From a virus (Duplodnaviria > Caudoviricetes): a stretch of DNA of 64,000 nt. A program made the position numbers and the translations under genes. Location of the stretch: positions 96,001-160,000 of the IMG/VR virus record IMGVR_UViG_3300020576_003495; one strand, 5' to 3'. This document shows positions 920 to 35,899 of the stretch, piece after piece. The notes under the pieces are model-generated. The model ran no database searches, was not told where the DNA came from, and saw only the letters and a program-made list of their open reading frames with translations. Numbering within the stretch: the stretch's first letter is position 1; the number at the start of each line of letters is the position of its first letter.

Positions 920-960
920 GGGCCGGTGGCGAAGTTGGTTGAAACGCATTAGGTGTGTTA
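920..960 (+). pseudogene. 5' half of a disrupted Leu-type tRNA
   Basis: GGGCCGG acceptor strand plus D arm GCGAAGTTGGTTGAAACGC; pairs with CCGGCCT-ACCA ending at 1593. Confidence 0.85.
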
Positions 961-964
961 ATAT

Positions 965-1040
965 GCCCCAATACGCAATTTGGTAAAGCGGGGGGATTTA
1001 AAATCCCTTGATTCTGTCAGTTCGACTCTGACTTGGGGCA
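965..1040 (+). tRNA. tRNA-Leu(TAA), short variable arm, no encoded CCA
   Basis: cloverleaf GCCCCAA/TTGGGGC, anticodon loop TTTAAAA. Confidence 0.9.
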
Positions 1041-1046
1041 CTCATT

Positions 1047-1550
1047 ATGATTCTTGTGTCTGAATACATAAAGCTTCCAAAAGAAGCTAGGCAAGCACAC
1101 CTAGATTTAGCTTCCCCTTGTATTGAGAGGGGTGGTAGTTCAACGCAGCATAGGGCAATACTGGCTTACGTGCTAGATACCGATATAGCTACGGGCGTAT
1201 GCTGTTGTCACGCTTGTAGTAACGGTAAATGCAGTAACCCTAAGCACCTGTATTGGGGTACGTATAAAGAGAACAGTCTTGATGCGTTAGCTGACGGTAA
1301 CCCTACACCGTGGGATCGCATGGTAAAGAAGTACGGTAAGGAAGGTGCCTTGGAGAAGCTTAAGTTACTACGCTTTAATAGTATAACAGCTAGGAGAGCG
1401 GCTTCTAAGCTTACGGATGACCAAGTGAGACACTTACGTTCTTTGCCAGTAAAGTACGGTATGGCGTCAGAGTGGGGTAGAATTTTTGGTGTTGGTAGGC
1501 ACGTAATACATAATGTTCTTGCCAACAAGTCGTATCAGCACGTACAGTAA
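1047..1550 (+). CDS. HNH/His-Cys-type homing endonuclease
   Basis: CHACSNGKCSNPKHLYWGT..EN motif, C-terminal helix-turn-helix-like tail. Confidence 0.85.
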   Translation: MILVSEYIKLPKEARQAHLDLASPCIERGGSSTQHRAILAYVLDTDIATGVCCCHACSNGKCSNPKHLYWGTYKENSLDALADGNPTPWDRMVKKYGKEGALEKLKLLRFNSITARRAASKLTDDQVRHLRSLPVKYGMASEWGRIFGVGRHVIHNVLANKSYQHVQ

Positions 1551-1593
1551 CACACTAGAAACACCGAGGGTTCGACTCCCTCCCGGCCTACCA
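1548..1593 (+). pseudogene. 3' half of the disrupted Leu-type tRNA
   Basis: T arm GAGGG-TTCGACT-CCCTC followed by CCGGCCT-A-CCA. Confidence 0.85.
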
Positions 1594-1597
1594 AACA

Positions 1598-1625
1598 GGG
1601 TGTATAGCTCAGGGGCAGTAGCAAC
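1598..1625 (+). pseudogene. 5' remnant of a tRNA (Ile/Lys-type start)
   Basis: GGGTGTA-TA-GCTCAGGGGCAGTAGC then abrupt loss of tRNA structure. Confidence 0.7.
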
Positions 1626-1632
1626 TTAGTAG

Positions 1633-1661
1633 TTGACGGCAAAAAGTATAGTCCGTATAAT
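1633..1661 (+). promoter_or_regulatory. sigma70 promoter of the HNH gene (leaderless geometry)
   Basis: TTGACG-17 nt-TATAAT, ATG 6 nt after the -10. Confidence 0.75.
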
Positions 1662-1667
1662 TGCAAC

Positions 1668-5686: not shown

Positions 5687-8600
5687 ATGTATTCTTCTCT
5701 GCTTGGTGGGACAGCTAAAACTATGTCCAACAAAACCCCCAAGACACCTTTTTCTGCGCTATTGAGCAAAGAGGAAAAGCATTTTCCCGCTGGATACACT
5801 GACCCCGAAGGGCATAAGGGGGGACAGTTTGCCCCGAAAGATACGACAGGTGAAGTAGCACAGGAAACCAAGGAAAAACCATTCGTTTATTCTGATGGTC
5901 AGACTTCCCTAGTGAATTCTATGGCAGTCAACAAGCCGAAGGAACCCACAGCGCCTGATGTCAGCCCTGAAGATTTGATTGCACACCACAAGGCAGGGCT
6001 TGAAAAGAGCGCCAAGCTGCTGAATCAGTACATCAAACAGGACGGGGGGAAGCCTACCGATACCAACGCAAAAATTCTAGCAGGGAACATTGCGAACCAC
6101 GTTGACGCGCTGTCTGATCTTGGTGGGATGAGCAAGGAAGAACTAGCCAAAGGACTCAGCACACAAGGTCTGAGCATGTGGCTGAAGAAAAAGCATGGCC
6201 TACCGCTCACAGCGCAAGAGGAAAAGAACATTGCCTCTACCATGAAGTCGGCTATCGCCTTGCAGAACAAGAAGCAAGCGGCTAAAAAACTGGAAGACCA
6301 CAAAAAGAATTCAGCGCTGGCGGAAGAAGCCAAAGTTAAGTTTGGGGAGGATTCGGCGCAGTACAAAAAGCTAAAAAACAAAGCCGAAAAAGACCTAAAC
6401 AAAGCCATGAGCTATGGGGTTCTTCCTGCCGATGCTGTAAAGGAAAAAGAAGTAGTTAAAGAAAACCACGATGCTGAGAAGGTAGCACAGCTTAAGGCCA
6501 TACATGACGCAGCAGAGGAATTGGCTCATCAAGAGCATATGGGCACGCAGAACACAGCCTACTACAATGCTGTTTCTGATGCCGTAGCTGCTGCGAAGTA
6601 TGCTGACGAAAACGAGACTAACAAGGCGATTGAAGCAGGGAAAGCTACCAATGCCGCAAAGATTGCCAACGGTAAAACCCTGCTATCTATTTCAGTAATT
6701 GCTCATGCTCAGGTTCAGCACCAACAGCATGAAGCCAAGGATTCCGACGCCTACAAAGAATACAAGGACGCGGCGAACGCCTATAAATACTACTACAACA
6801 CCGGGGCGATATATAACGGGCTAAACAAAGACGACCTAAAACAAGCGGTCAAGACGGGTAAGCTGGCATTCTCATCCATGAAGGCTAACAAGAACATGGA
6901 GAAGGTTGCCCCGCCTGATGTTCCCGGTTTTGAGAAACTTGCTCCCGCACCAAAACCCGCTGTGGAAGTGAAACCAGAATCACCAAAAACGTTCTCCGAC
7001 ATTTCTTCCGAGGCCAAGGCTAAAGACGGTTTGCAGCAGTTGGTTGATTTGACGACCAGCTACAACGCCCACATGACGATGCCTAACAATCAGACCTACT
7101 ACTCTGATTTCCTTGAAGCCAAGAAAAACTTCGACACGACGATGGGGGTTGGGTACTCCGACAAAGCGCTAGCGGCTTACTATGCCTTGAAGAACAATTT
7201 GGTGGATAGTCAGGCTAAGGATAAAGAAGCGGAAAAAGAAGCGCAGAAGAAAGATTTCTTTGGTGGTCTGGATTACCTGAAAGCTTACCCTAATGACAAA
7301 GAGGCGTCAGCAAAACTAGCTGATAACCACAAGGAGATTAACGATACCTACGGGGCAGGGACTACGCTGGCGTGGCTGAAAGAGTACAACGCCAAGAACA
7401 AGCAGGTTGAACCTAAAACCTTCTCCGATTTTGTTAATGACGCCAAAGGCAAAGGTAACACAGGTAAATTGGCCTACATGACCAATGCCTACAGCGACCA
7501 CAAAGCAGCACCGACACCCGACACACAGGCCATGCTTAATGGGGCTAAGGCTTCACTTGATGCGTCTATGGGGGCAGGGTATTCGGATAAGGCTATTGCT
7601 GCGTATGACACTGCGACCACTGCCAAGCCCCTCGCAACTTCGCCTGACGGTATGATGCTGGCGAAGGATAAGTCAGACTATTTCAAAGCCATAGATAGCA
7701 CGCCAGACAGCCCCAAGGGAGAGGCTGATCCTAAGTTGATGCAGATGAAATTGGACATCGACAAGAAGTATGGCGACGGCACAGCTAACTCGTGGATTGC
7801 CGAAAAGATTAAGGGGATGCATGCGGATGCCGCTGTAAAAGAAAATGTAAAAGCGTCTTACCTTAGCATTCTTAACTACGCGAACCCTGATGCCAGTCAG
7901 CAGAGTGCTATTGCAGAGATGAAGAAAAACATTGACGCGAAGTACGGGGATGGCACGGCTACAACGTGGATGACAGAAAACATCAAAGCTGTTGGTCAAG
8001 CCGCCACAGCGAAAAGTTACGATTATGGGAAGCAGGAATATAACCTAACCGACACTAAAGCCGACGCCCTAGCCGCGCTGAGAATTCCGCACACACTGGA
8101 TGACAAGTCTGACCTGATACAGAACATCATTGATAAGGCAAAAGCGGATATTGACCTTGCTTCGGGTGTTAAAGACGCAGGGCTGAAGTACCTTAATGGT
8201 AAGTACACCGACCACAGTAACGATAATCCGAACCCTGAGTTTTCTAATTTTGCTAAAGAGGTAGCGACCAAGATGTTGGTTGACGCGCAAGCAAAAGTAG
8301 ATAGCTTAGTTGATCCAATTCTTGAGCTATCAAAGAAAGACGCGGTTAAAGCACTTACTGGCCTGAAGCAAGACGTAGATAAGTACCTTGGGCAAGGTGC
8401 AAGTGCTGACTTGTTGGACTCCTATGACGAGGCTAAAGCAGACCACAAAAAACAATTCTTTGCCAAGATGGACGCGGTACAAGGTGGGAAAGCCAACGCA
8501 GACAACGCCTTGGCTTTGGGGATGCATATCAACAAAGTTGACGAGCTATTTGGCAAGGGAACATCAAGCCTGTGGGCTGATGAATTCAACTCTAAGAAGC

Positions 8601-11449
8601 TGTGGGCAGACGCCTACGGAGGTAATCCGCCTAAGCCTGTAGACCAAAAAGCCGAAGATAAAAAGAAGTATATCAATTCCTACATTGCAAACATGGTTCC
8701 AGAACACAAACCTATAGAACAGACTATGAACGCCAAGTATGGCGTGGATACTGTTCAGGGTTGGGTTAAGGATTTTAATGCTGACAAGAAAATGCTACAG
8801 GGGAAAAATCTGGATTATTTAGATAACCCATCCCCCGAAGCTGTAGCTGCCATAAGCAGCACTACAAAAACGATTGATGCGGCCTACGGGGACGGCACGG
8901 CAAAATACATGCTGACGGGGCACAAGCCCGATGTTTTGGGTTCAAAACCAAAGCCTACTCAAGAAGATAAAGATTACCTTCTGGCCGCATCCGACACCCT
9001 CGCTGCCACAGGGGCGAAAGTAGCTGATGCTGTGGATTTTGCAAAAAAAGTTAAGATGTTCAACAGCATTTACGGGGAGGGTGCTGCTTCTGCCTACATC
9101 AAAGAAGCTAAAAACTTAAAAATCCCCAATGACATGGACGTAAGTGGTGTCAACGGAACCACCCCACTAGCATGGAAGGAAATAATTAAGGATAACTACG
9201 ACTCGTCTGTGTCGAGTTTGGTTTTTCATTCTAGCGATGTCGAAGATTACCCACAGCTTTCTAATGTGGATAAGAGCTACGGTACGGGGATGCATCAATA
9301 TTGGCTGACACAGCATATTGAAAGTTTGGATAAAGAAGCTAAAACGACGGCACCTACACCAACTACATCTAGCCCTACCCAAGCTCTGCTTGATGCAGGT
9401 AATAAGCTAGGCGCAAGTGGGGCTAAGATCAGAGATATGATTATTTTTGCCAGTAAGGTTACTGAGTACAATAACCTATATGGTGAAGGGTATGCATCAA
9501 AGCACCTAGCAGACACGGATAGTCTTGTTATTCCGTCAGACGACACAGTTGACCAGAACGGGAAGACTGCTGCGGAGTGCAAAAAGTCTTTGGGTGATTC
9601 TTACGACGCAGCAGTTAAAAATGCATACGCCACAAATCAGGCGATACCTGTGTACGCCAAGACAGCTAATGCTAGTTTTGGTTTAGCCACGTACAACTAC
9701 TGGTTGGCGCAGCATATTGAGCAGTTAGCTCAGGGAAAGAGTTCACCAGCACCAATAACTCCAGTAGACCCCAAAGCCGTAAAAGCAGCAACAGCCAAGA
9801 TGAAGAAGTCGGTACTTGCTGCGGCTAAGGCATTAATTGCAAACCCAACATCCCCACAGCATGCCGCAGCGTTTTCAAGCCTATTGTCCGATGCGGACGC
9901 AAAGTACGGCAGTGGCACGGCATTGAAGTGGATTGGTGCGGCAAACAAAAAAGAAGCCAAGGCTAATACGGGAACGGTTGCTGCATTGGAAATGCCAAAA
10001 GAATTGAACGATGTCATCGCAGTGGGGGATAGCGTTAACACGGCAAGCAAAACACAAGTACCCAAATTGCCTGACGTTCTCCCCACGGACAAGACCGAAG
10101 CCGAAGCCCTTAACGAGAAGTTGGGGTTGGCTTACTATACTATTCGTCATGAGAATGGTGGGGATAAAAATGCCCCTGATGTGCTCGCATCCTACAAAGT
10201 GTGGGATACGCTAAAAGACCACATGAAAGCCAATTTGGGCTATGACAAGAGTTTCTTTAGTAGCTCATCTAGCGACTTGAACAGTAAAGCCCAATCTCTA
10301 TGGGACAACAGTGGACAGGCCGCTGCCGATAAAAAAGCAAAAGCCACATCGGATTACGTGGATTCTGTTGCGGCATGGAGTGCTGAAGCGTCAAAGAAGA
10401 ATATTGACCCCGACAACGAAGACTACCTGAAAGATATGATGGTCACGAACGCCAAGCAAGCGGTTATTGCGGGTGTGCCTTCGAATACTATCGGTACGTT
10501 GTTTGAATCAGGTAAAGCTAATTCTGCGGCTTTCGTTAAAAAACAAAAAGACGATGCCATGAAAGAAATAGCGGCGGCAAGTCACGACTACTTCATGAAG
10601 AGCGGTTTAAAGGGTGAGGACGACCCAGAAACTAAAGCCGCTAACATGAACGCTTTGAACATCATGGCAAAGCATAGCATGCTGCTTTCAGAAGCCGAGA
10701 AGATTGACGCTTTCGGAAGGTCGAAGGGTGCTGCTGAAAAAACAGTGGCTAACATGAAGCTGCTGGGCGACTTGGGTGCCGCTGCACAGAAATATGATTC
10801 CGGTGAAATTAATTGCAAATGGGCACCTAAAGGAAGCGACGAGTTTAACCAAGCAAAAGCGGTTGGGGATGCTTTGTGGAAATCTCTTACACCATCGCAA
10901 CGTTCCGCTTTCACAAGCTATACTGGGTCTGGACACAAAGGCGTTAACAAGAATCTGGCACAAGGAACGACTACTGATCTAGCGGATGTTTTATCCAAAG
11001 CCATGGACGGTCAATCTTTGGGGGTTGATGTTAAGCTTGGGCGGAATATGCCGCAGAAGTGGTTTTGGAAGGCGATGGGGCTTCCTAACGACACCAGAGC
11101 AGAAATGAACAATTTGACAGACGAACAGCTTCAAGCTTGTGTGGGTAAGGTTTATCATGAGCCGGGGATAAGTTCAACGTCGTATGATCAGGACTGCGGC
11201 GTGTCCGTTACTAATACGGGGGACCAGTCAGGCTATCTTAAGCTTCACATCAGAGCCGCCAAGGATATTTCACAGGGGTTGTGGATAGATACTCACTCGA
11301 CTTGTTCCAGTGAGCGTGAGGTTATGCTGAACAAAGGGGCAACGTATTTGATTCGTGGAATACAGCGCAATGATACGTCTAGCTACGGCCCGTACTCATA
11401 CACCATTGACCTTGACTTAATCGGCTACACACAGGAACCAAAGAAATGA
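5687..11449 (+). CDS. giant Alt-like ADP-ribosyltransferase with helical repeats, putative virion protein
   Basis: C-terminal R-S-E clade motifs (YTG..N..L, LGRN, ISSTS, EREVML); repeated D.KYG.GTA..W units. Confidence 0.8.
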   Translation: MYSSLLGGTAKTMSNKTPKTPFSALLSKEEKHFPAGYTDPEGHKGGQFAPKDTTGEVAQETKEKPFVYSDGQTSLVNSMAVNKPKEPTAPDVSPEDLIAHHKAGLEKSAKLLNQYIKQDGGKPTDTNAKILAGNIANHVDALSDLGGMSKEELAKGLSTQGLSMWLKKKHGLPLTAQEEKNIASTMKSAIALQNKKQAAKKLEDHKKNSALAEEAKVKFGEDSAQYKKLKNKAEKDLNKAMSYGVLPADAVKEKEVVKENHDAEKVAQLKAIHDAAEELAHQEHMGTQNTAYYNAVSDAVAAAKYADENETNKAIEAGKATNAAKIANGKTLLSISVIAHAQVQHQQHEAKDSDAYKEYKDAANAYKYYYNTGAIYNGLNKDDLKQAVKTGKLAFSSMKANKNMEKVAPPDVPGFEKLAPAPKPAVEVKPESPKTFSDISSEAKAKDGLQQLVDLTTSYNAHMTMPNNQTYYSDFLEAKKNFDTTMGVGYSDKALAAYYALKNNLVDSQAKDKEAEKEAQKKDFFGGLDYLKAYPNDKEASAKLADNHKEINDTYGAGTTLAWLKEYNAKNKQVEPKTFSDFVNDAKGKGNTGKLAYMTNAYSDHKAAPTPDTQAMLNGAKASLDASMGAGYSDKAIAAYDTATTAKPLATSPDGMMLAKDKSDYFKAIDSTPDSPKGEADPKLMQMKLDIDKKYGDGTANSWIAEKIKGMHADAAVKENVKASYLSILNYANPDASQQSAIAEMKKNIDAKYGDGTATTWMTENIKAVGQAATAKSYDYGKQEYNLTDTKADALAALRIPHTLDDKSDLIQNIIDKAKADIDLASGVKDAGLKYLNGKYTDHSNDNPNPEFSNFAKEVATKMLVDAQAKVDSLVDPILELSKKDAVKALTGLKQDVDKYLGQGASADLLDSYDEAKADHKKQFFAKMDAVQGGKANADNALALGMHINKVDELFGKGTSSLWADEFNSKKLWADAYGGNPPKPVDQKAEDKKKYINSYIANMVPEHKPIEQTMNAKYGVDTVQGWVKDFNADKKMLQGKNLDYLDNPSPEAVAAISSTTKTIDAAYGDGTAKYMLTGHKPDVLGSKPKPTQEDKDYLLAASDTLAATGAKVADAVDFAKKVKMFNSIYGEGAASAYIKEAKNLKIPNDMDVSGVNGTTPLAWKEIIKDNYDSSVSSLVFHSSDVEDYPQLSNVDKSYGTGMHQYWLTQHIESLDKEAKTTAPTPTTSSPTQALLDAGNKLGASGAKIRDMIIFASKVTEYNNLYGEGYASKHLADTDSLVIPSDDTVDQNGKTAAECKKSLGDSYDAAVKNAYATNQAIPVYAKTANASFGLATYNYWLAQHIEQLAQGKSSPAPITPVDPKAVKAATAKMKKSVLAAAKALIANPTSPQHAAAFSSLLSDADAKYGSGTALKWIGAANKKEAKANTGTVAALEMPKELNDVIAVGDSVNTASKTQVPKLPDVLPTDKTEAEALNEKLGLAYYTIRHENGGDKNAPDVLASYKVWDTLKDHMKANLGYDKSFFSSSSSDLNSKAQSLWDNSGQAAADKKAKATSDYVDSVAAWSAEASKKNIDPDNEDYLKDMMVTNAKQAVIAGVPSNTIGTLFESGKANSAAFVKKQKDDAMKEIAAASHDYFMKSGLKGEDDPETKAANMNALNIMAKHSMLLSEAEKIDAFGRSKGAAEKTVANMKLLGDLGAAAQKYDSGEINCKWAPKGSDEFNQAKAVGDALWKSLTPSQRSAFTSYTGSGHKGVNKNLAQGTTTDLADVLSKAMDGQSLGVDVKLGRNMPQKWFWKAMGLPNDTRAEMNNLTDEQLQACVGKVYHEPGISSTSYDQDCGVSVTNTGDQSGYLKLHIRAAKDISQGLWIDTHSTCSSEREVMLNKGATYLIRGIQRNDTSSYGPYSYTIDLDLIGYTQEPKK

Positions 11450-25670: not shown

Positions 25671-25748
25671 CTACCTGTCGCCTAGTCTGGTATGGCCCCT
25701 GATTTGGGATCAGGCATAACCTCAGTTCAAATCTGAGCAGGTAGACCA
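25671..25748 (+). tRNA. tRNA-Pro(TGG)
   Basis: CCTGA-TTTGGGA-TCAGG, CCA. Confidence 0.92.
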
Positions 25749-25963: not shown

Positions 25964-26316
25964 AACACTGTTAGATGCGTGTTTTTGGAGGTGGGCTTAG
26001 AAGCAGCCATCCTTAATGAGTAGGGCAAGTGCTGTATGCGGATACACATAGGCTGAGAAGGGCATCATTCAGGCCGAAAAGTTCAATAGGGTTTTGTGTG
26101 GATTCTTAGGGAGGCTGGCGTTAGGCCAGATAGCCGAAAGACGAAGCAAAATCACGCCAAGGCAGCTTCGCAAACTGCTGAAGGAATGGGAGTAGCACTC
26201 CCTGAGAACGAATGGGCGTACAGGGCCACACAGCTAGTATCAAGGGGAAGTTGCCGGTAATCCCCACGATCCCTTTTGGCGTGACAGCACACCAAGAATA
26301 CGCATCTAACACTGTT
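25964..26316 (+). ncRNA. 23S rRNA H43/H44 mimic ncRNA, copy 1
   Basis: GGAGGTGGGCTTAGAAGCAGCCATCC ... GCGTGACAGCACAC inside a long terminal helix GTTAGATGCGTGTTTTTGG/CCAAGAATACGCATCTAAC. Confidence 0.85.
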
Positions 26317-26326: not shown

Positions 26327-26366
26327 TGGCGAGGAGGTTGTTGGTTACCAGACAGGCTCATAACCT
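26327..26366 (+). pseudogene. 5' remnant of a CAT-anticodon tRNA
   Basis: retains D region and AGG-CTCATAA-CCT, lacks T arm and 3' strand. Confidence 0.75.
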
Positions 26367-26405
26367 TTTTCGCTAGTTGTGTTATGATACCCGTGGGGGT
26401 ATGCA

Positions 26406-26858
26406 ATGACACACTTACTATGTTGCAGTTGTAAAGAAAGCAAGCCTTTAGCTAGCTTTTCCAAAGACAAGAGTTCAAAGCGTGGGTACGCTAGTAAATG
26501 TAAAGACTGCCATAATACCTACGTGCGTACTGTGTGGTACCCAAAGAACAAGGATAAGCAGGTAGCGTCTGTTGCTCGTTTTAAAACAGCCAACAGACTG
26601 AAAGAAATCGCTTGGCGGCACGGTGTTCCGTTAGCGGATGTAGAAGAAGCAATAGAGCGCAGTTCTGGGGCTTGTGAAAGCTGCGGTTCCACTGTCTCTG
26701 TTGTGCTAGACCACTGCCACACCACGTCTAAAGTTAGAGGCGTCTTGTGCATGCGTTGTAATACAGTTTTAGGTAGGCTAGGGGATTCTTACGAGAGTGT
26801 TAAACAGCACATGGAGAGTTTGCTGGCCTATTTGGAAAAAAGTTTCGCGGGTGAGTGA
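26406..26858 (+). CDS. endonuclease VII-like homing endonuclease
   Basis: CESCG...LDHCHTT..VRGVLC..CN..LG. Confidence 0.9.
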   Translation: MTHLLCCSCKESKPLASFSKDKSSKRGYASKCKDCHNTYVRTVWYPKNKDKQVASVARFKTANRLKEIAWRHGVPLADVEEAIERSSGACESCGSTVSVVLDHCHTTSKVRGVLCMRCNTVLGRLGDSYESVKQHMESLLAYLEKSFAGE

Positions 26859-26923
26859 AACGTCTTACACAATGGGTTCATATCCCATTAACAGCAGGGT
26901 TAGACTCCCTGTACCCGCAACCA
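26846..26923 (+). tRNA. initiator tRNA-fMet(CAT)
   Basis: C1:A72 mismatch, GGG/CCC anticodon stem, CCA. Confidence 0.9.
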
Positions 26924-26925
26924 GT

Positions 26926-27052
26926 TTCTGTGGCGTAAATAACGATTTCCTCAATGCCAATGAAGTAACGTGGGTTCGAATCCCATCGGCTCGTAAGGGC
27001 TGTCGTCTAGTGGTTAGGACACTAAAAATTTCGTTGTTGCTTGTTCCCAGAA
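26926..27052 (+). ncRNA. YrlA-like Y RNA (permuted tRNA-like domain)
   Basis: T arm, closed acceptor-like stem, then D arm, on a long terminal stem ending CTTGTTCCCAG. Confidence 0.8.
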
Positions 27053-27162
27053 TTAAACAAAGGCCAGAAGCCTAAGTAGTTCCCCGAGCATACGGTAAAC
27101 GTGGGGTTCCCTTGAACAGACTGTTCTTCAACTTCTGTTCGGGGGGATCATGCGACAGTTTT

Positions 27163-27301
27163 ACGGTGTGTGCTTTCGTGCCGGTTCTACTAGAATCAAA
27201 ATTTTATCAAAGCATAGAACCTTGGTGGGGGCTAGGAAAGCCTCAAAATCACTAAAGGTCAGCAGTTGTATTTACAGAATTACGTGGGGGCTTGTTCCTG
27301 T
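27163..27301 (+). ncRNA. Y-RNA-like stem 2
   Basis: GGTGT...CTTGTTCC terminal motif shared with neighbours. Confidence 0.55.
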
Positions 27302-27332
27302 GTTCATAGAAGGATCACCCCAGTAGCAGATT

Positions 27333-27407: not shown

Positions 27408-27484
27408 TGCTTGTTAGCTCAGTCCGGCAGAGCATTGTCTTGATAAGGCACAGGTCGTCGGTTCAAATCCGACACAAGCAACCA
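27408..27484 (+). tRNA. tRNA-Ile(GAT)
   Basis: loop TTGATAA, CCA. Confidence 0.9.
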
Positions 27485-27488
27485 AGTT

Positions 27489-27551
27489 TCGGTGGTGTTG
27501 GTTAGTCGTTCTTCTTTCGGTGAAAAATCCGACTAGCTGTTTGTTCCCCGA
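27489..27551 (+). ncRNA. Y-RNA-like stem 4
   Basis: GTGGTGTT...TTCTTC...TTTGTTCCC. Confidence 0.6.
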
Positions 27552-27611
27552 TTAATTTCCCCAGTCTTAGTGGCGGGATGGTCTTAGGTATTTATACCCA
27601 CAGGAGTCAAC

Positions 27612-28112
27612 ATGTCCCCCGAACAGAAACAAGCCACATCCGAAGGTATTGAGAATGCTTTAGCTAGCGTACCCCCCGAGATTGTTGATGAAGCCCTACG
27701 CTTCTGGTATGCCTACGCAAAACTCCATTATCGTTTTACATCGGCACAAGTCCTCGTTTCTTTCCTTGCTCGCAAGGGCACAACACCCGGAAATGGCAAG
27801 GGTTGGCGGGATTGTTGGGGGTCGATTTGCGTGAAAGCCAAAAAGCAAGGCATCATGCAAAAAGTGGGGATCATGGTCACCACTGAGAAGCATACCCACA
27901 TGGGTCACGGTGCGTACTGGCAGTCCAAGGTTTATGAAGGTGGGGATGAGCAGTATCGAAACAGCCCCGAGCAGGATTTGAAGCGTGCGCTGTACATGCG
28001 CTGGCTCAAGAAGGATTATGAGAATCTGCGTGACTACACGGATGACGTGTTTTCGATGGGGGTCAAGTTTGCCCTTGAGAACAAAGAGTACGTTGCGGGG
28101 ATAAAAATTTAA
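27612..28112 (+). CDS. hypothetical protein
   Basis: AGGAG RBS, clean ORF. Confidence 0.7.
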   Translation: MSPEQKQATSEGIENALASVPPEIVDEALRFWYAYAKLHYRFTSAQVLVSFLARKGTTPGNGKGWRDCWGSICVKAKKQGIMQKVGIMVTTEKHTHMGHGAYWQSKVYEGGDEQYRNSPEQDLKRALYMRWLKKDYENLRDYTDDVFSMGVKFALENKEYVAGIKI

Positions 28113-28148
28113 CTGTGTGTGCTAACGTACAGACAGGTAGTTTCAACT

Positions 28149-28223
28149 GTGTCCCTGACAGAGAGGCCGATGTGCAGGATTGCAAACCCTGATAGCCCGG
28201 TTCAATTCCGGGGGGACACTCCA
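28149..28223 (+). tRNA. tRNA-Cys(GCA)
   Basis: loop TTGCAAA, U73, CCA. Confidence 0.9.
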
Positions 28224-28226
28224 AGT

Positions 28227-28378
28227 TACGTAGCATCACGGAAGGAACGTGCGTGGCCCACGAGGTCGATGGGGTACGGTCAGTTTTCATGTGGGGGTCG
28301 ACGCCCTAACATGCAAAGCTTAATGCTGTGCTGACAAGAAGGTGAGCAGGGCGCAACCCTGTAAGACCTTCCTACGTA
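28227..28378 (+). ncRNA. structured ncRNA candidate
   Basis: closed by TACGTAG/CTACGTA, internal hairpins, flanked by tRNAs. Confidence 0.45.
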
Positions 28379-28381
28379 TTT

Positions 28382-28459
28382 GCGCTCTGAGCTAGTCTGG
28401 TGATTCAGCGACAGTTTGAAGAACTGTAGAACTAGGTTCGATTCCTAGAGGGTGCACCA
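28382..28459 (+). tRNA. tRNA-Phe(GAA)
   Basis: ACAGT-TTGAAGA-ACTGT, CCA. Confidence 0.88.
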
Positions 28460-28478
28460 AGATTACTGTATAGTCGAG

Positions 28479-28553
28479 TGGGGTGATATGCAATGGATGC
28501 ATACTTGGCTTTGAACCAAGGTTAGTCAGGTTCGATTCCTACCACCCCTTCCA
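28479..28553 (+). tRNA. tRNA-Gln(TTG)
   Basis: CTTGG-CTTTGAA-CCAAG, CCA. Confidence 0.88.
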
Positions 28554-28559
28554 GTTTTT

Positions 28560-28643
28560 AGAGAGATGAGCTTTGGAAGCAAACTATCTTGGAAAGGTAG
28601 TCCATCCGAAAGGGTGACAGTTCGATTCTGTATCTCTCTGCCA
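28560..28643 (+). tRNA. tRNA-Ser(GGA)
   Basis: CTATC-TTGGAAA-GGTAG, long variable arm. Confidence 0.88.
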
Positions 28644-28651
28644 TGTTTTAA

Positions 28652-28739
28652 GGTTAGGTGCGCGAGTGGCTAAAGCGTCTTGTTTGCTAAACAATGAGTC
28701 CGAAAGGGCACTAGGGTTCGAACCCCTACCTAACCGCCA
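28652..28739 (+). tRNA. tRNA-Ser(GCT)
   Basis: loop TTGCTAA, long variable arm, CCA. Confidence 0.92.
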
Positions 28740-28745
28740 TGTTAC

Positions 28746-28822
28746 GCCGGGTTGACGGAATTGGCATACGTGCAAGTTTCAAAAACTTGATCTTGCGGGT
28801 TCGACTCCCGCACCCGGCACCA
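28746..28822 (+). tRNA. tRNA-Leu(CAA), short variable arm
   Basis: CAAGT-TTCAAAA-ACTTG, CCA. Confidence 0.9.
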
Positions 28823-28828
28823 AGTTTT

Positions 28829-28905
28829 GCCCTTGTGGTGGAATAGGCATACACACGCGCTTGAGGGGTGCGGTTCTGTCGGTTCGAGTCCGACCAAGGG
28901 TACCA
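28829..28905 (+). tRNA. tRNA-Leu(GAG), short variable arm
   Basis: CGCGC-TTGAGGG-GTGCG, CCA. Confidence 0.9.
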
Positions 28906-28911
28906 GTCTAT

Positions 28912-28982
28912 GCCCTCACTATCGAATAGCATCAGGTTTCCTAAACCAGATTGTGACAGTTAAACTCTGTCTGAGGGCACCA
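28912..28982 (+). tRNA. tRNA-Arg(CCT), minimal D arm
   Basis: loop TTCCTAA, perfect acceptor and T stems, CCA. Confidence 0.8.
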
Positions 28983-28983
28983 T

Positions 28984-29054
28984 ACCCCGACTGTGGGACA
29001 GATTTTGGCCTTCTAAGCCAAAAATGGGAGGTTCGAAACCTTCTCGGGGTGCCA
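28984..29054 (+). tRNA. tRNA-Arg(TCT), minimal D arm
   Basis: TTGGC-CTTCTAA-GCCAA, CCA. Confidence 0.82.
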
Positions 29055-29060
29055 AGTTTT

Positions 29061-29134
29061 GCGGATGTAGCTTAGTGATAAAGCGCTTGTTTGCCAAGCA
29101 AGATACGCGAGTTTGATTCTCGTCTTCCGCTCCA
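29061..29134 (+). tRNA. tRNA-Gly(GCC)
   Basis: loop TTGCCAA, U73, CCA. Confidence 0.9.
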
Positions 29135-29140
29135 AGTTTC

Positions 29141-29215
29141 GCCCTTGTAGCACAGTGGCAGTGCACTCGCTTGGTAAGCGAGAGGTCGTGGGTTCGATTC
29201 CGACCAAGGGCACCA
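29141..29215 (+). tRNA. tRNA-Thr(GGT)
   Basis: CTCGC-TTGGTAA-GCGAG. Confidence 0.92.
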
Positions 29216-29221
29216 AGTTTC

Positions 29222-29296
29222 GCCCTTTTAGCGCAGTGATAGAGCAATCGTTTCGTAAGCGATAGGTCGTCTGTTTGATTCAGACAAGGGGCACCA
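29222..29296 (+). tRNA. tRNA-Thr(CGT)
   Basis: ATCGT-TTCGTAA-GCGAT. Confidence 0.9.
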
Positions 29297-29306
29297 GAGT
29301 TTTAAT

Positions 29307-29751: not shown

Positions 29752-30087
29752 GGTGTTCGTAGAGGGTGGGCTTAGAAGCAGCCATCCCTTAAAGAGTAGG
29801 ACAAGTGCTGTATGCAGGTACACATAGGCAGTTTAAGGGCATAGTTAACTGGCCGAAAAGTTCAATAGGGTTTGTGTGGATTCTTAGAACGGCTTGGGGT
29901 CTGGACTCCAAGTACCAATCGAAAGACGAAGCAAATCACGCCAAGGCAGTCTCGCAAACTGCTGAAGGAATGGGGGTTGCACCCACTGAGAGCGAATGGC
30001 ATACAGAGCCACACGGCAAGTATCAATGGAAGGCAGAGATGCTAAATCCAACGATTCCTTTTAGCGTAGTAGCACACTACGAACACC
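29752..30087 (+). ncRNA. 23S rRNA H43/H44 mimic ncRNA, copy 2
   Basis: AGGGTGGGCTTAGAAGCAGCCATCCCTTAAAGA ... AGCGTAGTAGCACAC closed by GGTGTTCGTAG/CTACGAACACC; colinear with copy 1. Confidence 0.85.
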
Positions 30088-30285: not shown

Positions 30286-30374
30286 GGAGTCGTAAGAGCA
30301 AAGAGGACGCGCCACACGGCTGTGAACCGTGTCTCGAAAGAGGTTAGTGGGTTCAAGCCCCACACGACTCCCCA
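30286..30374 (+). tRNA. tRNA-His(GTG) with long variable arm
   Basis: 8-bp acceptor (G-1:C73), CACGG-CTGTGAA-CCGTG. Confidence 0.9.
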
Positions 30375-30610: not shown

Positions 30611-30646
30611 AAGGTGAGGCGGGTTTGACTCCCGTACCGGATACCA
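30611..30646 (+). pseudogene. 3' remnant of a tRNA (probably Glu)
   Basis: GCGGG-TTTGACT-CCCGT-ACCGGAT-A-CCA with no 5' half. Confidence 0.72.
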
Positions 30647-30655: not shown

Positions 30656-30688
30656 TCCGCAGAATCCAAGCAAGGTGCAAGGACTTGT
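30656..30688 (+). pseudogene. 5' remnant of an Asn-type tRNA
   Basis: TCCGCAG-AA-TCCAAGCAAGGTGCAAGGA D arm, truncated in the anticodon stem. Confidence 0.6.
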
Positions 30689-30714
30689 CGGAAAGTGGGT
30701 GCAAAAAGATCAAT

Positions 30715-30803
30715 TCCCCGGTACTCTAATGGTAAGAGGCGATACTGTTAATATCGTGTAGTCGGCCTAGCGCCGTATAGAAGTTCGAGTCTTCTCTGGG
30801 GAG
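30715..30803 (+). tRNA. tRNA-Asn(GTT) with long variable arm, no encoded CCA
   Basis: CGATA-CTGTTAA-TATCG. Confidence 0.88.
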
Positions 30804-30808
30804 CACGT

Positions 30809-31216
30809 ATGAAGAATGGTGAGTATACTTTAGTCATAGCGCCTGAAGGGTATCCGGGCAAGAGGTACCGTGGTCGCTACTGCTATGAACATCATTTGGT
30901 TTGGTGGTTGAATACAGGTGAAGTCGTACTTGCTGGCGAGTTGATTCACCACAAAGATGAGGACAAGCGCAATAACGTTTTCCTTAACCTTGAGAAAATG
31001 TCAAAGACTTCTCATGATGCACACCACAGTAACCTACCGATTAAGTCGCCTGTTCTGGTGTCTCTTTTTTGTTTTTGGTGCGGTTCTGCTTTCACCTTGA
31101 GGAAGCATGTTTACGTGTGCAGGGTTAGAGCTAACGGGCATGCTGATGTGTGTTGTGGAAGGTCGTGCCAAGTCAAGAAGCAGCAGCATGACAAAAAAGT
31201 TAAAAAGGAAAATTAA
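30809..31216 (+). CDS. HNH homing endonuclease
   Basis: YEHHLVWW, IHHKDEDKRNN..NLE; related to 24941..25417. Confidence 0.9.
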   Translation: MKNGEYTLVIAPEGYPGKRYRGRYCYEHHLVWWLNTGEVVLAGELIHHKDEDKRNNVFLNLEKMSKTSHDAHHSNLPIKSPVLVSLFCFWCGSAFTLRKHVYVCRVRANGHADVCCGRSCQVKKQQHDKKVKKEN

Positions 31217-31290: not shown

Positions 31291-31341
31291 CACTAAAACT
31301 GTTCGACTTCTGCTAAAATATTATTTTTGTGGAGTCGAACC

Positions 31342-31866
31342 ATGCGGATAAGTAAAAAACAAATAGCTAGGTTTTGGTCTAACGTGCAGAAAACAGATAG
31401 CTGTTGGCTTTGGTTGCGGCAACCAAATAATAAAGGCTACGGTAAGGTAACTATAAGGCCGAATAGTCAAGAGCGTGTAATGCTATTGGCACACAGGCTA
31501 GCTTGGCTTCTAGTTAAAGGTGAAATACCAGATGGGTTATTTGTCCTACACAAGTGCGATACTCCCTTGTGTTGCAATCCCGAACACTTATTCCTTGGAA
31601 CTCAACAAGATAACATGGGTGATATGTGGGCTAAGGGGCGCAGTCGACTGCATGAGTTCAGGCACTTGGGGACGATTGCTGCACATACTGAAGTGGCTAC
31701 GCAAAAGCGGAAAGATACGTTTATTGCCATTGAACACCAGAAGGGTAAGCGCAACTCGCAGTTTGGGTCTTTTTGGATTACCGATGGTAAAGTTAATAAG
31801 AAGTGGCGTTCTGAGTTGGGCTGTATCCCCTCTGGTTTTTTTAAAGGACGTAGTAAATTTTTTTAA
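31342..31866 (+). CDS. HNH homing endonuclease
   Basis: CWLW, AHRLAW, VLHKCDTPLCCNPEHLFLGTQQDN. Confidence 0.93.
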   Translation: MRISKKQIARFWSNVQKTDSCWLWLRQPNNKGYGKVTIRPNSQERVMLLAHRLAWLLVKGEIPDGLFVLHKCDTPLCCNPEHLFLGTQQDNMGDMWAKGRSRLHEFRHLGTIAAHTEVATQKRKDTFIAIEHQKGKRNSQFGSFWITDGKVNKKWRSELGCIPSGFFKGRSKFF

Positions 31867-31871: not shown

Positions 31872-31959
31872 GGAAACGTGGCAGAGTGGTCAATTGCACC
31901 GGCTTTGAATACCGGCAGTCCGAAAGGGCACGTGCGTTCGAATCGCACCGTTTCCGCCA
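31872..31959 (+). tRNA. tRNA-Ser(TGA)
   Basis: loop TTTGAAT, long variable arm, CCA. Confidence 0.92.
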
Positions 31960-33281: not shown

Positions 33282-33492
33282 GATAAATTTACCTGAGTTT
33301 CCCCCCTTAGACTCGAAACATTATCCCTCTGATGAAGCCATCTCTGCGGAGCTAAAAAGACGTAGAGCGTTGATTGACGCAGCATGGCCTGATGATCTTG
33401 AAGTGTCCGACGACGAACTGCATGAATTGGGTTACGCTGTAGAAAAGACCGGGGACAACAAGGGTCTTAACGTGATCTTGGGGCGCGGTTAG
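33274..33492 (+). CDS. small acidic protein (candidate immunity protein)
   Basis: AGGAG RBS, overlaps the stop of the upstream gene. Confidence 0.65.
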   Translation: MPKINLPEFPPLDSKHYPSDEAISAELKRRRALIDAAWPDDLEVSDDELHELGYAVEKTGDNKGLNVILGRG

Positions 33493-33516
33493 TCTGCACG
33501 GTTGATTGGAGTTGCT

Positions 33517-35133
33517 ATGTTTGCTGCCCTACTAAGAAATGATATATCTTATGTCCTTAAAGGGGATGTGGTAGGCCACCCTTTCCGTGGAAACCAATAT
33601 GGAAAAGGCGTATCCCAAGGCCAAGACTATACCGACAGTAAGGGCCGTGCACATATTGGTGATTTAGACCCAACACAGCGCAGAGCAGAGTCGGCGTTTT
33701 ATGGTGCTATTGAAAAAGATTTGCCGTCGCTGATCAAAGCCTATCAGGAAAAGAACGGGCACACGATTGACGCGGATAAGGTAAAAGAACTATCCCCCGA
33801 TTTCCTGTCGAACCCTTCTTTGTTTGCTGCTGCCGTGCATGAGCCTAGTTCGTTGCTCTCCAAGGTGTTGTTTAGTACAGAACTGGATGCTAAGGCCAAA
33901 GCAGGGGATACTAGCCCCACGATACTGACCGCAGGTGGCAGTGGGTCGGGCAAGAGCGAAGCCATGCCGATTGTGCTAAAGGCCATCAACGCTAAAAAGG
34001 GTGGTTTGGTTTTTGATTCTGTCTTGGGTAACTTTGGTTCAGCCAAGAGCAAGATTGATGAAGCCTTGGTTAAAACTAAAGGTGATGTGGTGATTGCCTA
34101 CACCAACAGAAAACTTGAGGACGCTTTCCGTTCAAACGCTAAACGTGCACGCACAGTTTTGACGAAGACGTTGGTTGGTGCACATGTCGGTGCTTCTAAT
34201 AATATTAGAAAGCTGGCAGAACACTACGCTGGAAATCCTCGTGTGAAAATCCACGTGGTCAATAATTTTGGGGGTGTCGAGGATATTCACCAAGGAAAAT
34301 TGGAGGATGTTCCCACATACGGTTCAGATACAACCGATAAACTGCATGCAATTGCTGATACAATGCATGCCAACAAGGAAATTAGTGATGAAATCTACGC
34401 CCACATTACAAAAGGACGATCCGTTCAGAAAAGCTGCGCTCGAATTCTCAAAGAAACATCCGGGAAAAACTTTGGACGATATTGCTTTGGAACAGGAGAA
34501 GGAATCCGATGCCAGAGCAGCGGAACACCTGAAGAATCCGAAGGTGCAAGCGGCGTTCGGAAAGGCGAGTCCGCAGGGCACCCCTTCCGGGGAAACCAAT
34601 ACACCAGCAAAGACATTGGAACAGGTGGTGGAACAAATCAATCAGGAGCTAGCGGAGACAGTTCCCTTCCACTTCGGGCAGACGGGAAAGTAGAGCTAAC
34701 GCACTGGTCGAATGCGGCTAATTTGAGCAGCATTGATCCTTCGCACTACGGTCACGGCTATGCGGGGGCTGAAAAAGCACGTAAGGACTCTGACCCTGAT
34801 GATTGGGTCGACAGGAGTTACTACGGCATTGGTGTAGGCCAGCCGGGGGGCTATGAAAAAGAAGAAGGCTTGGGTAGTCACAAGTACATCAGTGGTGTTG
34901 ATCCCAAGTCGCTCTACGATATTGTCAAAGACCCCGATGGGCTGAATCCCAAAGGCACGCTGGATAGCTGGACAAACCAGATGAGCCTGTATGAGAAAAA
35001 CATCAAGGGCAAAGGGTATACAGGATACTGGTTGAAGCACCCGAGTCTAGGGATGGTTGCAGCGGTGTTCAAGCCCCTTGTCCCTGAGCAGTACATTGCC
35101 CCCGTACAGAAGTTCGCTAAGTTCTTCAGATAA
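33517..35133 (+). CDS. two-domain protein: zeta-toxin-like kinase plus unknown C-terminal domain
   Basis: AGGSGSGKS, VHEPSS, FDSVL; GHPFRGNQY motif precedes each domain. Confidence 0.75.
   Translation: MFAALLRNDISYVLKGDVVGHPFRGNQYGKGVSQGQDYTDSKGRAHIGDLDPTQRRAESAFYGAIEKDLPSLIKAYQEKNGHTIDADKVKELSPDFLSNPSLFAAAVHEPSSLLSKVLFSTELDAKAKAGDTSPTILTAGGSGSGKSEAMPIVLKAINAKKGGLVFDSVLGNFGSAKSKIDEALVKTKGDVVIAYTNRKLEDAFRSNAKRARTVLTKTLVGAHVGASNNIRKLAEHYAGNPRVKIHVVNNFGGVEDIHQGKLEDVPTYGSDTTDKLHAIADTMHANKEISDEIYAHITKGRSVQKSCARILKETSGKNFGRYCFGTGEGIRCQSSGTPEESEGASGVRKGESAGHPFRGNQYTSKDIGTGGGTNQSGASGDSSLPLRADGKVELTHWSNAANLSSIDPSHYGHGYAGAEKARKDSDPDDWVDRSYYGIGVGQPGGYEKEEGLGSHKYISGVDPKSLYDIVKDPDGLNPKGTLDSWTNQMSLYEKNIKGKGYTGYWLKHPSLGMVAAVFKPLVPEQYIAPVQKFAKFFR
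34388..34693 (+). CDS. out-of-frame nested ORF (candidate antitoxin)
   Basis: AAGGAA RBS, helical charged product, overlaps the interdomain linker of 33517..35133. Confidence 0.5.
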   Translation: MKSTPTLQKDDPFRKAALEFSKKHPGKTLDDIALEQEKESDARAAEHLKNPKVQAAFGKASPQGTPSGETNTPAKTLEQVVEQINQELAETVPFHFGQTGK

Positions 35134-35138
35134 GTTTT

Positions 35139-35162
35139 GCCGGTTTCGCATAGTGGGATTGC
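35139..35162 (+). pseudogene. 5' half of a disrupted Thr-type tRNA
   Basis: GCCGGTT plus D arm; pairs with AACCGGC-ACCA ending at 35899. Confidence 0.85.
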
Positions 35163-35234
35163 CCTTACTAGCTTAGTGGCATTGCACTAAATCTTTTCTC
35201 CGTGTATACTGTTGGCTTTTGCGGAGACTAGCCG

Positions 35235-35777
35235 ATGAAAGGGATACCACTAACATACCCTTATAATGATTGTGTGGGTTACATTCAACACAGTAAGGAC
35301 GGCAGGGCGTATTTGTACCTATACAACCCAACAACTAAAAGAAGGCGTCTAATAGCTTACGCTAGGTATTTATTGTCTGTGGAGTTGGGGCGCTTTTTGC
35401 TGCCAGAAGAACAAGTTGACCACATAGACGATAACCCGCTTAACGATGCGTTGTCTAATCTACAGGTTCTCTCTGTGGATGACCACAAGAAAAAGACAGC
35501 TAAGAGTGCTGCCAGCAAAATAGAGTGGGTAGAGTTTTCTTGCCCTACATGCGGTGTTAAATTTAAACGCACTAGGCGAATTGTTAACCAGAGTATGAAG
35601 TCTTATGGTGATAGTTGGGCTCCAAGCTGTTCGATAAGCTGCGCTACGGCACGCACTAAAGGTACATCTGACGACACTAAGCTTAAAATAAAACAGCTTA
35701 GGCTTTTGGGGCAGTCTGGTTATGAAATAGCCAGTGCTCTAGGCGTTAGCAGGAACACGGTAATGAAGTATTGGTAA
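35235..35777 (+). CDS. HNH homing endonuclease with C-terminal HTH
   Basis: VDHIDDNPLNDALSNL, LGVSRNTVMKYW; paralog of 1668..2210. Confidence 0.9.
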   Translation: MKGIPLTYPYNDCVGYIQHSKDGRAYLYLYNPTTKRRRLIAYARYLLSVELGRFLLPEEQVDHIDDNPLNDALSNLQVLSVDDHKKKTAKSAASKIEWVEFSCPTCGVKFKRTRRIVNQSMKSYGDSWAPSCSISCATARTKGTSDDTKLKIKQLRLLGQSGYEIASALGVSRNTVMKYW

Positions 35778-35781
35778 TTTT

Positions 35782-35857
35782 GCTTTCGTGCCTCAATTGG
35801 TACAGGACAACTCTTGTAAGGTTGCATTTGTCGGTTCGAGTCCGACCGAAAGCTCCA
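35782..35857 (+). tRNA. tRNA-Thr(TGT)
   Basis: CAACT-CTTGTAA-GGTTG, CCA. Confidence 0.92.
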
Positions 35858-35863
35858 AGAACG

Positions 35864-35899
35864 CAGCTTGAGTGTGTTCGATTCACACAACCGGCACCA
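35864..35899 (+). pseudogene. 3' half of the disrupted Thr-type tRNA
   Basis: GTGTG-TTCGATT-CACAC-AACCGGC-A-CCA. Confidence 0.85.

Follow-up and report, generated by a model that had tools for sequence, protein, structure and literature searches.

Homing endonucleases persist in essential genes by means of self-splicing introns or inteins, or else they sit between genes. In phage T4, the nuclease SegB cleaves transfer RNA (tRNA) genes internally, close to the 3' end, and promotes the inheritance of the region in which they lie (PMC2330249; PMC13096335), and group I introns with homing endonuclease open reading frames (ORFs) are found in tRNA anticodon loops (PMC3984707). We analysed here a stretch of 64,000 nucleotides (nt), called the window below, which comprises bases 96001-160000 of one 178,170-base-pair virus record (IMG/VR IMGVR_UViG_3300020576_003495) that is about 91% complete. 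Its tRNA array contains HNH and endonuclease VII-type nuclease ORFs lying next to intact tRNAs and to halves of broken tRNA genes. At two loci, Leu (920-1593) and Thr (35139-35899), the insert between both halves of one old tRNA consists of only a nuclease ORF and an intact tRNA. We consider it fairly probable that this tRNA array was colonised by homing-type nucleases of three His-Me-finger families, all free-standing, and that these drive replacement of tRNA alleles.

This arrangement resembles each of the described systems in part. As with SegB of T4 and T6, a free-standing GIY-YIG enzyme, nuclease genes lie between tRNA genes and are absent from close relatives (PMC2330249; PMC13096335). 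SegB also cuts inside tRNA genes, and through it the tRNA region is rearranged and inherited preferentially, as we propose for the nucleases here; the plain nuclease insertions described below are at the C|CA end of a tRNA, near the SegB cut position. Unlike SegB, the folds here are HNH and endonuclease VII, and neither a nested arrangement, nor half-tRNA scars, nor a replacement tRNA inside a broken target has been described for SegB. As in the group I introns of tRNA anticodon loops, an HNH-type nuclease lies inside a tRNA gene with the halves flanking it, and a relative of one of our nucleases (N1) sits in exactly such an intron setting on contig L414; however, there is no ribozyme here and the old gene is not restored as RNA, so that a second, whole tRNA would supply the function. 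Islands and prophages integrated in tRNA or transfer-messenger RNA (tmRNA) genes likewise target a tRNA, restore the gene and leave a partial copy behind, but they do this with an integrase and a short near-identical 3'-end repeat, whereas here no integrase is present, the break is in mid-gene and the copies are 60-70% identical. Fungal mitochondrial mobile endonuclease ORFs, for example in Allomyces atp6, reportedly bring a substitute gene end. There, too, a free-standing endonuclease ORF is said to insert and bring a replacement, with the original piece staying as a remnant; the reported case is an in-frame replacement of part of a protein gene, whereas here a complete RNA gene is brought and the target is broken mid-gene. 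We found no published description of a replacement tRNA nested in its own broken target, and the literature searched gave SegB-type work.

Every tRNA gene of the 178-kb genome lies within the window on the + strand (ARAGORN, Infernal), and ARAGORN lists 32 genes, a permuted alpha-type tmRNA included. Broken tRNAs were sought with a regular expression for 3' halves (T arm, 7-nt acceptor strand, any nucleotide, CCA) over the whole genome on both strands. Its matches were confined to the tRNA region and the + strand, and those outside complete tRNAs were at 1566 (Leu), 24314 (Tyr side), 30619 and 35872 (Thr). A tRNA profile recovered the same four 3' halves with E from 0.001 to 0.4, the background elsewhere being E > 2. 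When full acceptor complements were looked for up to 2.5 kb upstream of these 3' halves, only two pairs were found, 920/1566 (one G·U) and 35139/35872 (7/7 Watson-Crick), and the acceptor strands at 920 and 35139 each continue into a canonical D arm. The original prediction that both halves are kept at Leu and Thr is thus borne out by acceptor complementarity together with canonical D arms. The two loci consist of the following features:

920-964, + strand: 5' half of a probable old class-II tRNA-Leu, with acceptor GGGCCGG (complementary to 1584-1590) and D arm TGGCGAAGTTGGTTGAAACGCA
965-1041, + strand: cassette tRNA-Leu(taa) with a short variable arm and CCA not encoded (ARAGORN; Infernal 53.2 bits)
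1047-1550, + strand: nuclease N1, a family B HNH/His-Me protein (PHROG HNH, E 1e-9; weak Pfam zf-His_Me_endon), related to N7
1551-1593, + strand: 3' half of the probable old tRNA-Leu, with the rest of the variable arm, the T arm and CCGGCCT-A-CCA
35139-35188, + strand: 5' remains of a very probable old tRNA-Thr(UGU), with acceptor and D arm at 35139-35163 and a second D-arm copy plus ACT at 35171-35188
35235-35777, + strand: nuclease N8, family A, HNH_3 with a helix-turn-helix (phrog_14913, E 4e-33)
35782-35857, + strand: cassette tRNA-Thr(tgt) (ARAGORN; Infernal 57.1 bits)
35866-35899, + strand: 3' half of the very probable old tRNA-Thr, GTGTG TTCGATT CACAC AACCGGC A CCA

At the Thr locus, about 45 nt separate the old 5' remains from N8, 4 nt lie between N8 and tRNA-Thr(tgt), and the old 3' half begins about 8 nt further on. 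The 5' acceptor complements 35890-35896 in all seven positions, and among IMG/VR tRNAs with the acceptor pair GCCGGTT/AACCGGC-A-CCA, 97/102 are tRNA-Thr and 86/102 are tRNA-Thr(tgt). Moreover, the first 24 nt of the old 5' half occur in four metagenome contigs (L285-L288), each with an intact tRNA-Thr(tgt), e.g. L288:2949-3030; compared with such intact genes, the break in the old gene precedes the anticodon loop. These comparisons argue strongly that the old gene at 35139/35866 was a tRNA-Thr, of the same isotype as the inner tRNA. The two D-arm copies in the 5' remains (12/15 identical by eye) suggest more than one round of damage. A separate observation is that the permuted tmRNA (window 38848-39178) lies 3 kb downstream of the Thr locus, and that a permuted tmRNA is also present about 700 nt from the intact old-type tRNA-Thr(tgt) on two of the metagenome contigs (L286:3331-3735, L287:4349-4753).

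The order at the Leu locus is different: tRNA-Leu(taa) comes first after the old 5' half, N1 begins 5 nt beyond it, and the N1 stop codon abuts the old 3' half. The isotype could be examined here by comparison with a sister strain, represented by five Logan contigs (L258, L261, L262, L270 and L272), the backbone of which is 96-99.6% identical to the window. The D arm of the remnant matches that of the syntenic intact class-II tRNA-Leu(taa) of this strain (L270:2786-2879) in 21 of 22 positions, and the 3' half and the sister gene have CACACTA in the variable arm in common. With the D arm alone, a nearest-neighbour isotype classifier, which has about 50% accuracy on intact tRNAs and a biased reference set, gave Leu in 10/15 neighbours; the acceptor-pair test was ambiguous and returned mostly CAT tRNAs. 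We thus see good grounds for reading the old gene at 920/1551 as a tRNA-Leu, concordant in isotype with the cassette.

It is plausible to ask whether these split genes still function, the insert being intron-like or the halves being joined as a split tRNA at the RNA level. N1 relatives do lie beside a true group I intron (L414), a group I intron-like insert is present in a tRNA of another, jumbo-phage family, and the inner ends of the Leu halves can be paired by eye in 9/10 positions. However, with 5 nt between tRNA and N1 and the 3' half adjoining the N1 stop codon, the inserts have no space for a ribozyme; in the old Thr and CAT genes the anticodon arm is truncated or missing, and uninterrupted ordinary tRNAs occupy the same sites in the sister strain. 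A search of window 1-43000 with Rfam, admitting E values of up to 10, gave no group I intron; we therefore agree with the original prediction that the cassettes are intron-less, and we rejected a group I or other intron on the ground of this result and of the truncated anticodon arms. Joining of the halves at the RNA level was rejected as well, as the genome contains no RNA ligase, RtcB or CCA-adding enzyme. Taken together, a functional split seems very improbable. As for the earlier claim that the break is always around the anticodon arm, the Leu break cannot be cleanly placed there.

All eight nuclease ORFs match HNH or endonuclease VII families (Pfam, PHROGs) and none lies within an intron. 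The original prediction assigned them to several unrelated HNH and endonuclease VII subfamilies; we found instead three His-Me-finger families, A (N2, N4, N6, N8), B (N1, N7) and C (N3, N5). Members of family A are not clustered according to which isotype the adjacent tRNA has, and N2, N4 and N8 have a common C-terminal helix-turn-helix, ending in ...RNTVMKYW or a near variant. Besides N1 and N8, the set is as follows:

1668-2210, + strand: N2, family A, HNH_3 with zinc ribbon and C-terminal helix-turn-helix (phrog_14913, E 5e-26), 36% identical to N8
23886-24308, + strand: N3, family C HNH (phrog_2255, E 2e-31), absent from the sister strain
24941-25417, + strand: N4, family A, HNH_3 with helix-turn-helix (Pfam HNH_3, E 4.5e-9), 100% identical in the sister strain
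26406-26858, + strand: N5, family C, endonuclease VII-type (Pfam Endonuclease_7, E 4e-15), absent from the sister strain
30809-31216, + strand: N6, family A HNH (Pfam HNH_3), absent from the sister strain
31327-31866, + strand: N7, family B HNH (Pfam HNH_3, E 1.6e-15), present in both strains, 5 nt upstream of tRNA-Ser(tga) at 31872-31959

Searches of the annotated phage collection and of IMG/VR, with DNA and with flanking proteins, gave no close relative of the genome, and the comparison of alleles was made with the sister strain, in which contigs L258, L261 and L262 lack N3, N5 and N6. Window 23685-24335, containing tRNA-Asp, tRNA-Tyr, N3 and a 3' half, corresponds to 243 nt in the sister strain, with a different tRNA-Asp and tRNA-Tyr and no nuclease. 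Window 26335-26907 (the rest of a CAT half, N5 and a new tRNA) corresponds, with identical junctions, to one intact sister tRNA-Met(cat) at L258:9504-9580. In place of N6, the sister strain has tRNA-Asn and tRNA-Ser(cga) 7 nt apart, the N6 insertion point being within CCA. The original prediction had called for a search for empty alleles in relatives, and these exist: intact tRNAs are present in the sister strain at two of the remnant sites. The sister Leu site carries another Leu-like 5' half, an intact Leu(taa), a different HNH of 153 amino acids (aa) in place of N2, and a tRNA-Met(cat) identical to that of the window.

Identity of tRNAs between the two strains is bimodal, with 12 at 100%, 3 at 96-99% and 8 at 59-68%, the last group consisting of Asp, Tyr, Leu(tag), Pro, fMet (initiator CAT), Ile and both Lys. 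The tRNA-Asn alleles differ only in the anticodon stem, with compensatory changes, and in the variable arm. The window tRNA-Pro(tgg) (25671-25748) and sister tRNA-Pro(cgg) (L258:8847-8924) are 86% identical; most of the differences, the anticodon among them, are in the anticodon arm, and three lie outside it. An additional Pro(tgg) gene is present in the sister strain. Next to nucleases, alleles either diverge strongly or differ in the anticodon arm alone, which would be an indirect sign of the predicted resistance to cleavage.

At the remaining loci only one half of the old gene, or none, was recognised. The features concerned are:

1598-1640, + strand: 5' half of an old Val-like tRNA, with canonical acceptor and D arm
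2220-2295, + strand: tRNA-Met(cat), resident and not payload (ARAGORN), within a block common to sister contigs L270/L272 that starts at window 2212
23693-23868, + strand: tRNA-Asp(gtc) and tRNA-Tyr(gta), putative replacement alleles, 59% and 68% identical to sister Asp and Tyr, the upstream flank being 99.6% identical
24309-24341, + strand: 3' half of an old tRNA, syntenic to tRNA-Tyr (regular expression and tRNA profile)
24897-24928, + strand: 5' half of an old Ala-like tRNA, with canonical acceptor and D arm
25407-25478, + strand: non-canonical tRNA-Ala(tgc) with G3:U70, overlapping the N4 end (ARAGORN; Infernal only 24.8 bits)
26328-26366, + strand: 5' part of an old CAT tRNA, with the anticodon loop CTCATAA retained
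26847-26919, + strand: cassette tRNA(cat) with an initiator-like C1xA72 mismatch (ARAGORN; Infernal 34.7 bits), 61% identical to the sister allele
30612-30646, + strand: orphan 3' half, Glu-like by position (regular expression and tRNA profile), absent from the original prediction
30656-30695, + strand: weak 5' remnant, Asn-like by position, starting directly after AGTTTCAA, where the sister tRNA-Asn starts with TTCC
30715-30804, + strand: tRNA-Asn(gtt) with a long variable arm (ARAGORN, Infernal)

The 5' halves at 1598 and 24897 retain T8, A14, G18G19 and the D stem. On both strands, 356 kb in all, there are six occurrences of the motif T[AG]GCTCA..GG..AGC, namely in two real tRNAs, in these two remnants and at two places elsewhere. 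A generic 5'-half profile was powerless, recovering only three real tRNAs; exact 20-21-nt searches with the 1598 and Ala halves gave no IMG/VR match, and comparing the halves with the phage's own tRNAs did not settle their isotypes. For the 24897 half, both IMG/VR tRNAs with its 5' pattern (2/2) are Ala(tgc) and the nearest-neighbour test gave Ala in 7/15, so that Ala is suggested with modest confidence. Bacterial tRNAs beginning with GGGTGTATAGCTCAGNGG, as at 1598, are tRNA-Val in 100/107 cases. The 1598 remnant, earlier taken for CAT/Ile2, is therefore Val-like, and the neighbouring tRNA-Met(cat) is resident, an identical copy lying behind a different nuclease in the sister strain.

The end of the Tyr-side 3' half coincides with the end of the sister tRNA-Tyr (L258:7368-7450) and is followed in both strains by GAATTCGCTT; Tyr was also the top isotype in the nearest-neighbour test (6/15), the acceptor-pair test being uninformative. 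The earlier reading that only a 3' half is kept for Tyr was thus upheld by a remnant at the syntenic tRNA-Tyr position. The idea that this 3' half and the 24897 5' half form one permuted tRNA was rejected, since the acceptor strands are not complementary. Similarly, the 30612 half ends where the sister tRNA-Glu ends, before the spacer AGTTTCAA, and its nearest neighbours are Asp or Glu. No isotype was supported for the 30656 remnant by the sequence-based tests. Nevertheless, the 30612 half, AGTTTCAA and the 30656 half are collinear with the sister Glu, spacer and Asn, and would therefore be the inner remains of an old Glu-Asn pair. The original prediction of a lone 5' half at Ala, fMet and Asn accordingly stands to differing degrees: the fMet remnant keeps its loop, the Ala one is modestly supported, and the Asn one is weak by itself and relies on position.

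A third split tRNA was noticed at 37692-37853, with acceptor GCAAGGG/CCCTTGC (Infernal 40.4 bits) and ending in CCT instead of CCA. Its interruption is about 106 nt of structured sequence after the 5' strand of the anticodon stem, without a nuclease ORF or intron match. Several pieces that had looked like orphans proved to be complete but non-canonical tRNAs, overlooked by both ARAGORN and Infernal: His(gtg) at 30286-30365, with G-1/C73 and an odd D arm, and Arg(cct) at 28913-28983 and Arg(acg) at 41608-41676, both with reduced D arms. An apparent orphan piece therefore needs checking before it is called a remnant.

Over all loci, the match between inner and broken tRNA appears strong for Thr and good for Leu, is indicated by synteny for CAT, Tyr, Asn and Glu, is modest for Ala, and is not seen at 1598. 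Old and new copies are about 60-70% identical, a similarity no higher than that of unrelated tRNAs, which agrees with the earlier statement that the new tRNA is highly divergent from the remnant. This divergence also bears on the notion that duplicated tRNA pieces were made by integrase-type islands, or by faulty assembly. Integrative elements do often target tRNA genes and leave a partial duplicate. On the other hand, no integrase adjoins any of the loci, the ORFs there being nucleases; the copies are not near-identical repeats, and the breaks are in mid-gene and not at the 3' end. The integrase/att explanation was rejected because there is no adjacent recombinase and the copies are too divergent. 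With respect to an artefact, at least five independent assemblies carry identical sequence; those from other samples (L257, L259, L263, L271 and L274) are 100% identical over these loci. We give next to no credence to either of these origins.

A similar design was found in other phages. Homologues of N8 (34-40% identical) lie 0-25 nt upstream of a tRNA in 5/6 metagenomic protein clusters examined. In an unrelated AT-rich jumbo-phage family (L004-L020) there is such a site between a 139-aa ORF and a Macro gene: L004 has a 5' half, an HNH 40% identical to N8, tRNA-Met(cat) and a 3' half, and in L018 the syntenic position is occupied by an intact tRNA-Met(cat), an empty allele. Nested extra 3' halves are present in L008, L015 and L017, and in L013 a different HNH variant and a different tRNA-Met lie between the same halves. 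The L013 case speaks for nuclease and tRNA moving as one unit; the nuclease copy without a tRNA in L018, and the one resident tRNA that N2 and the sister 153-aa HNH have in common, speak against it. Elsewhere on L004 (5567-6434), a tRNA gene is split by a group I intron-like insert scoring 36.4 bits, below the family threshold.

Two cultured phages carry related arrangements, the HNH gene again being 0-25 nt upstream of the tRNA. Klebsiella phage RaK2 (L284 1398-2490) has a family A HNH and then tRNA-Asn, with an Asn-like 5' half downstream, and Escherichia phage Bas91 (L283 1470-2110) has an Arg-like fragment, a family A HNH and tRNA-Arg. An unannotated intact CAT tRNA was also seen in RaK2 at 1398-1474. 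Next to the N1 relative P0099 there is a true group I intron flanked by tRNA-like exons (L414:1120-1906, Rfam 58.4 bits), so the same nuclease family is accompanied by a ribozyme in one phage and by a spare tRNA here. No nested halves were found in 236 unrelated viral loci scanned with a filter of limited sensitivity, which would have missed the Thr case.

How could such loci arise? We propose that a nuclease from one genome would cut a sensitive tRNA allele of a co-infecting relative, in or near the anticodon arm, and that repair of the break would copy the nuclease gene along with the adjacent tRNA. As the copied tRNA differs at the cut region, it would be immune. Where homology exists on both sides, the old allele would be lost, so that a given tRNA would be either the same in two sister strains or only about 60% identical. 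An illegitimate join on one side or on both would leave half of the old gene as a scar: both halves for Leu and Thr, only the 5' half for Ala, CAT and Asn, and only the 3' half for Tyr and Glu. The one-sided scars would fit repair with homology on one side only. The intact tRNA, if it works, would restore the decoding lost by the insertion, and the element could thus occupy an RNA gene without a self-splicing intron. Which allele each nuclease would cut, that the new allele would be immune, in what order things happened and that the new tRNAs would work are all suppositions of this scheme.

Several observations weigh against replacement driven by the nucleases. Not every nuclease carries a tRNA. 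N6 is a nuclease-only insertion in the CCA end of tRNA-Asn without payload, tRNA-Asn and tRNA-Ser(cga) both being present in the empty allele; a family B HNH of 180 aa, found only in the sister strain, cleanly interrupts the CCA of the tRNA-Gly there, again with no payload tRNA, the window site being empty; and N2 lies beside a resident tRNA. At 1598, the remnant is Val-like and the adjacent tRNA is CAT, a tRNA common to the strain with the other nuclease. Two scars have no adjacent nuclease, namely the 3' half of Glu (30612) and the split tRNA of 37692-37853. As regards co-conversion of flanking sequence, N3, N5 and N6 do have divergent tRNA alleles beside them, yet Ile, Lys and Leu(tag)/Pro diverge away from any nuclease in either strain. 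The concordance of isotypes would also be expected if related phages exchanged DNA with synteny preserved. Some of the cassette tRNAs are non-canonical (e.g. Ala, at 24.8 bits) and of doubtful function. Finally, no N8-less DNA of a close relative was recovered, an N8-less allele being indicated by the gene table of one contig (sample SRR35987605), in which 230 nt separate the 560-aa and 94-aa ORFs. Thus, the view of the original prediction that these are selfish nuclease and tRNA cassettes is carried by the compact inserts in older tRNA genes and by the isotype match at most loci, but does not extend to 1598 and N6.

These same observations would be accommodated if the nucleases only start breaks, which are then repaired by gene conversion from diverged syntenic relatives. 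In such a case, the same-isotype tRNA would be simply that of the donor and not a payload, and half-tRNAs would be by-products of sloppy repair in a tandem array. The plain insertions of N6 and of the sister HNH, the two different nucleases upstream of the same resident tRNA-Met, the scars at 30612 and 37692-37853 with no nuclease beside them, the Val-like remnant beside a CAT tRNA and the divergent alleles at nuclease-free loci are all in its favour. Moreover, the two strains have homologous flanks at the fMet and Tyr sites, and therefore exchange of whole blocks by ordinary recombination is possible there; SegB-type homing with co-conversion is the textbook case (PMC2330249). What speaks against this explanation is the shape of the inserts: those of Leu, Thr and L004 are bounded by a tRNA end and a nuclease ORF or short leader, both joins are inside the old gene and no donor flank is present. 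In addition, L013 has a different nuclease variant with a different tRNA between the same halves, and the nuclease-tRNA pair recurs in unrelated genomic contexts. We thus regard mere gene conversion as a serious but rather unlikely account, and allele replacement driven by the nucleases themselves as the preferred one.

A broader idea, which we put forward as speculative and on present evidence doubtful, is that tRNA arrays are arenas for 'cut-and-rescue' elements, in which a nuclease is tied to an immune same-isotype tRNA, and that the resulting swaps are adaptive against host tRNA-cleaving defences and rival nucleases. If it were true, this would be a third way to occupy an essential gene beside introns and inteins. 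On the preferred account of allele replacement, too, an RNA gene is occupied by an element that brings a spare copy along, much as in engineered 'cleave-and-rescue' gene drives. Such replacement would also explain why tRNA sets differ sharply between near-identical phage strains, and why there are odd-looking phage tRNAs and tRNA 'pseudogenes' annotated next to HNH genes. The present genome stands out in having at least six scars and nucleases of three families, in the natural empty alleles that a sister strain offers and in alleles that differ mainly in the anticodon arm. Because the sister strain provides the natural empty alleles, nuclease specificities are directly testable, and with the alleles that differ in this arm one can ask what selects for such changes, nucleases or host defences aimed at tRNAs.

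Some further features of the array and its surroundings were noticed. The variable arms of three tRNA-Leu (taa 965-1041, caa 28746-28822 and gag 28829-28905) are short and class I-like, and the extra arm of tRNA-Asn(gtt) at 30715-30804 is long; neither feature is usual in bacterial-type tRNAs. A spacer AGTTT[CT] recurs directly after CCA between tandem tRNAs in window 27480-29300 and elsewhere, and both plain nuclease insertions fall within a CCA that precedes this spacer. At window 26953-27044 there is a tRNA-like piece in which a stretch resembling a D arm comes after a T arm; it matches YrlA weakly (Y RNA-like; 27.5 bits, below the family threshold). A non-coding element of about 320 nt is present in the tRNA array in two copies that are about 80% identical (25990-26301 and 29765-30086). 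Segments 27057-27332 (276 nt) and 36689-36998 (310 nt) are missing from some sister-strain contigs and are thus further small indels beside the array. Window 5687-11449 encodes a 1920-aa ORF with a match to the ADP-ribosylating exotoxin domain PF03496 (precomputed gene table), the sister version of which is 2158-2168 aa long.

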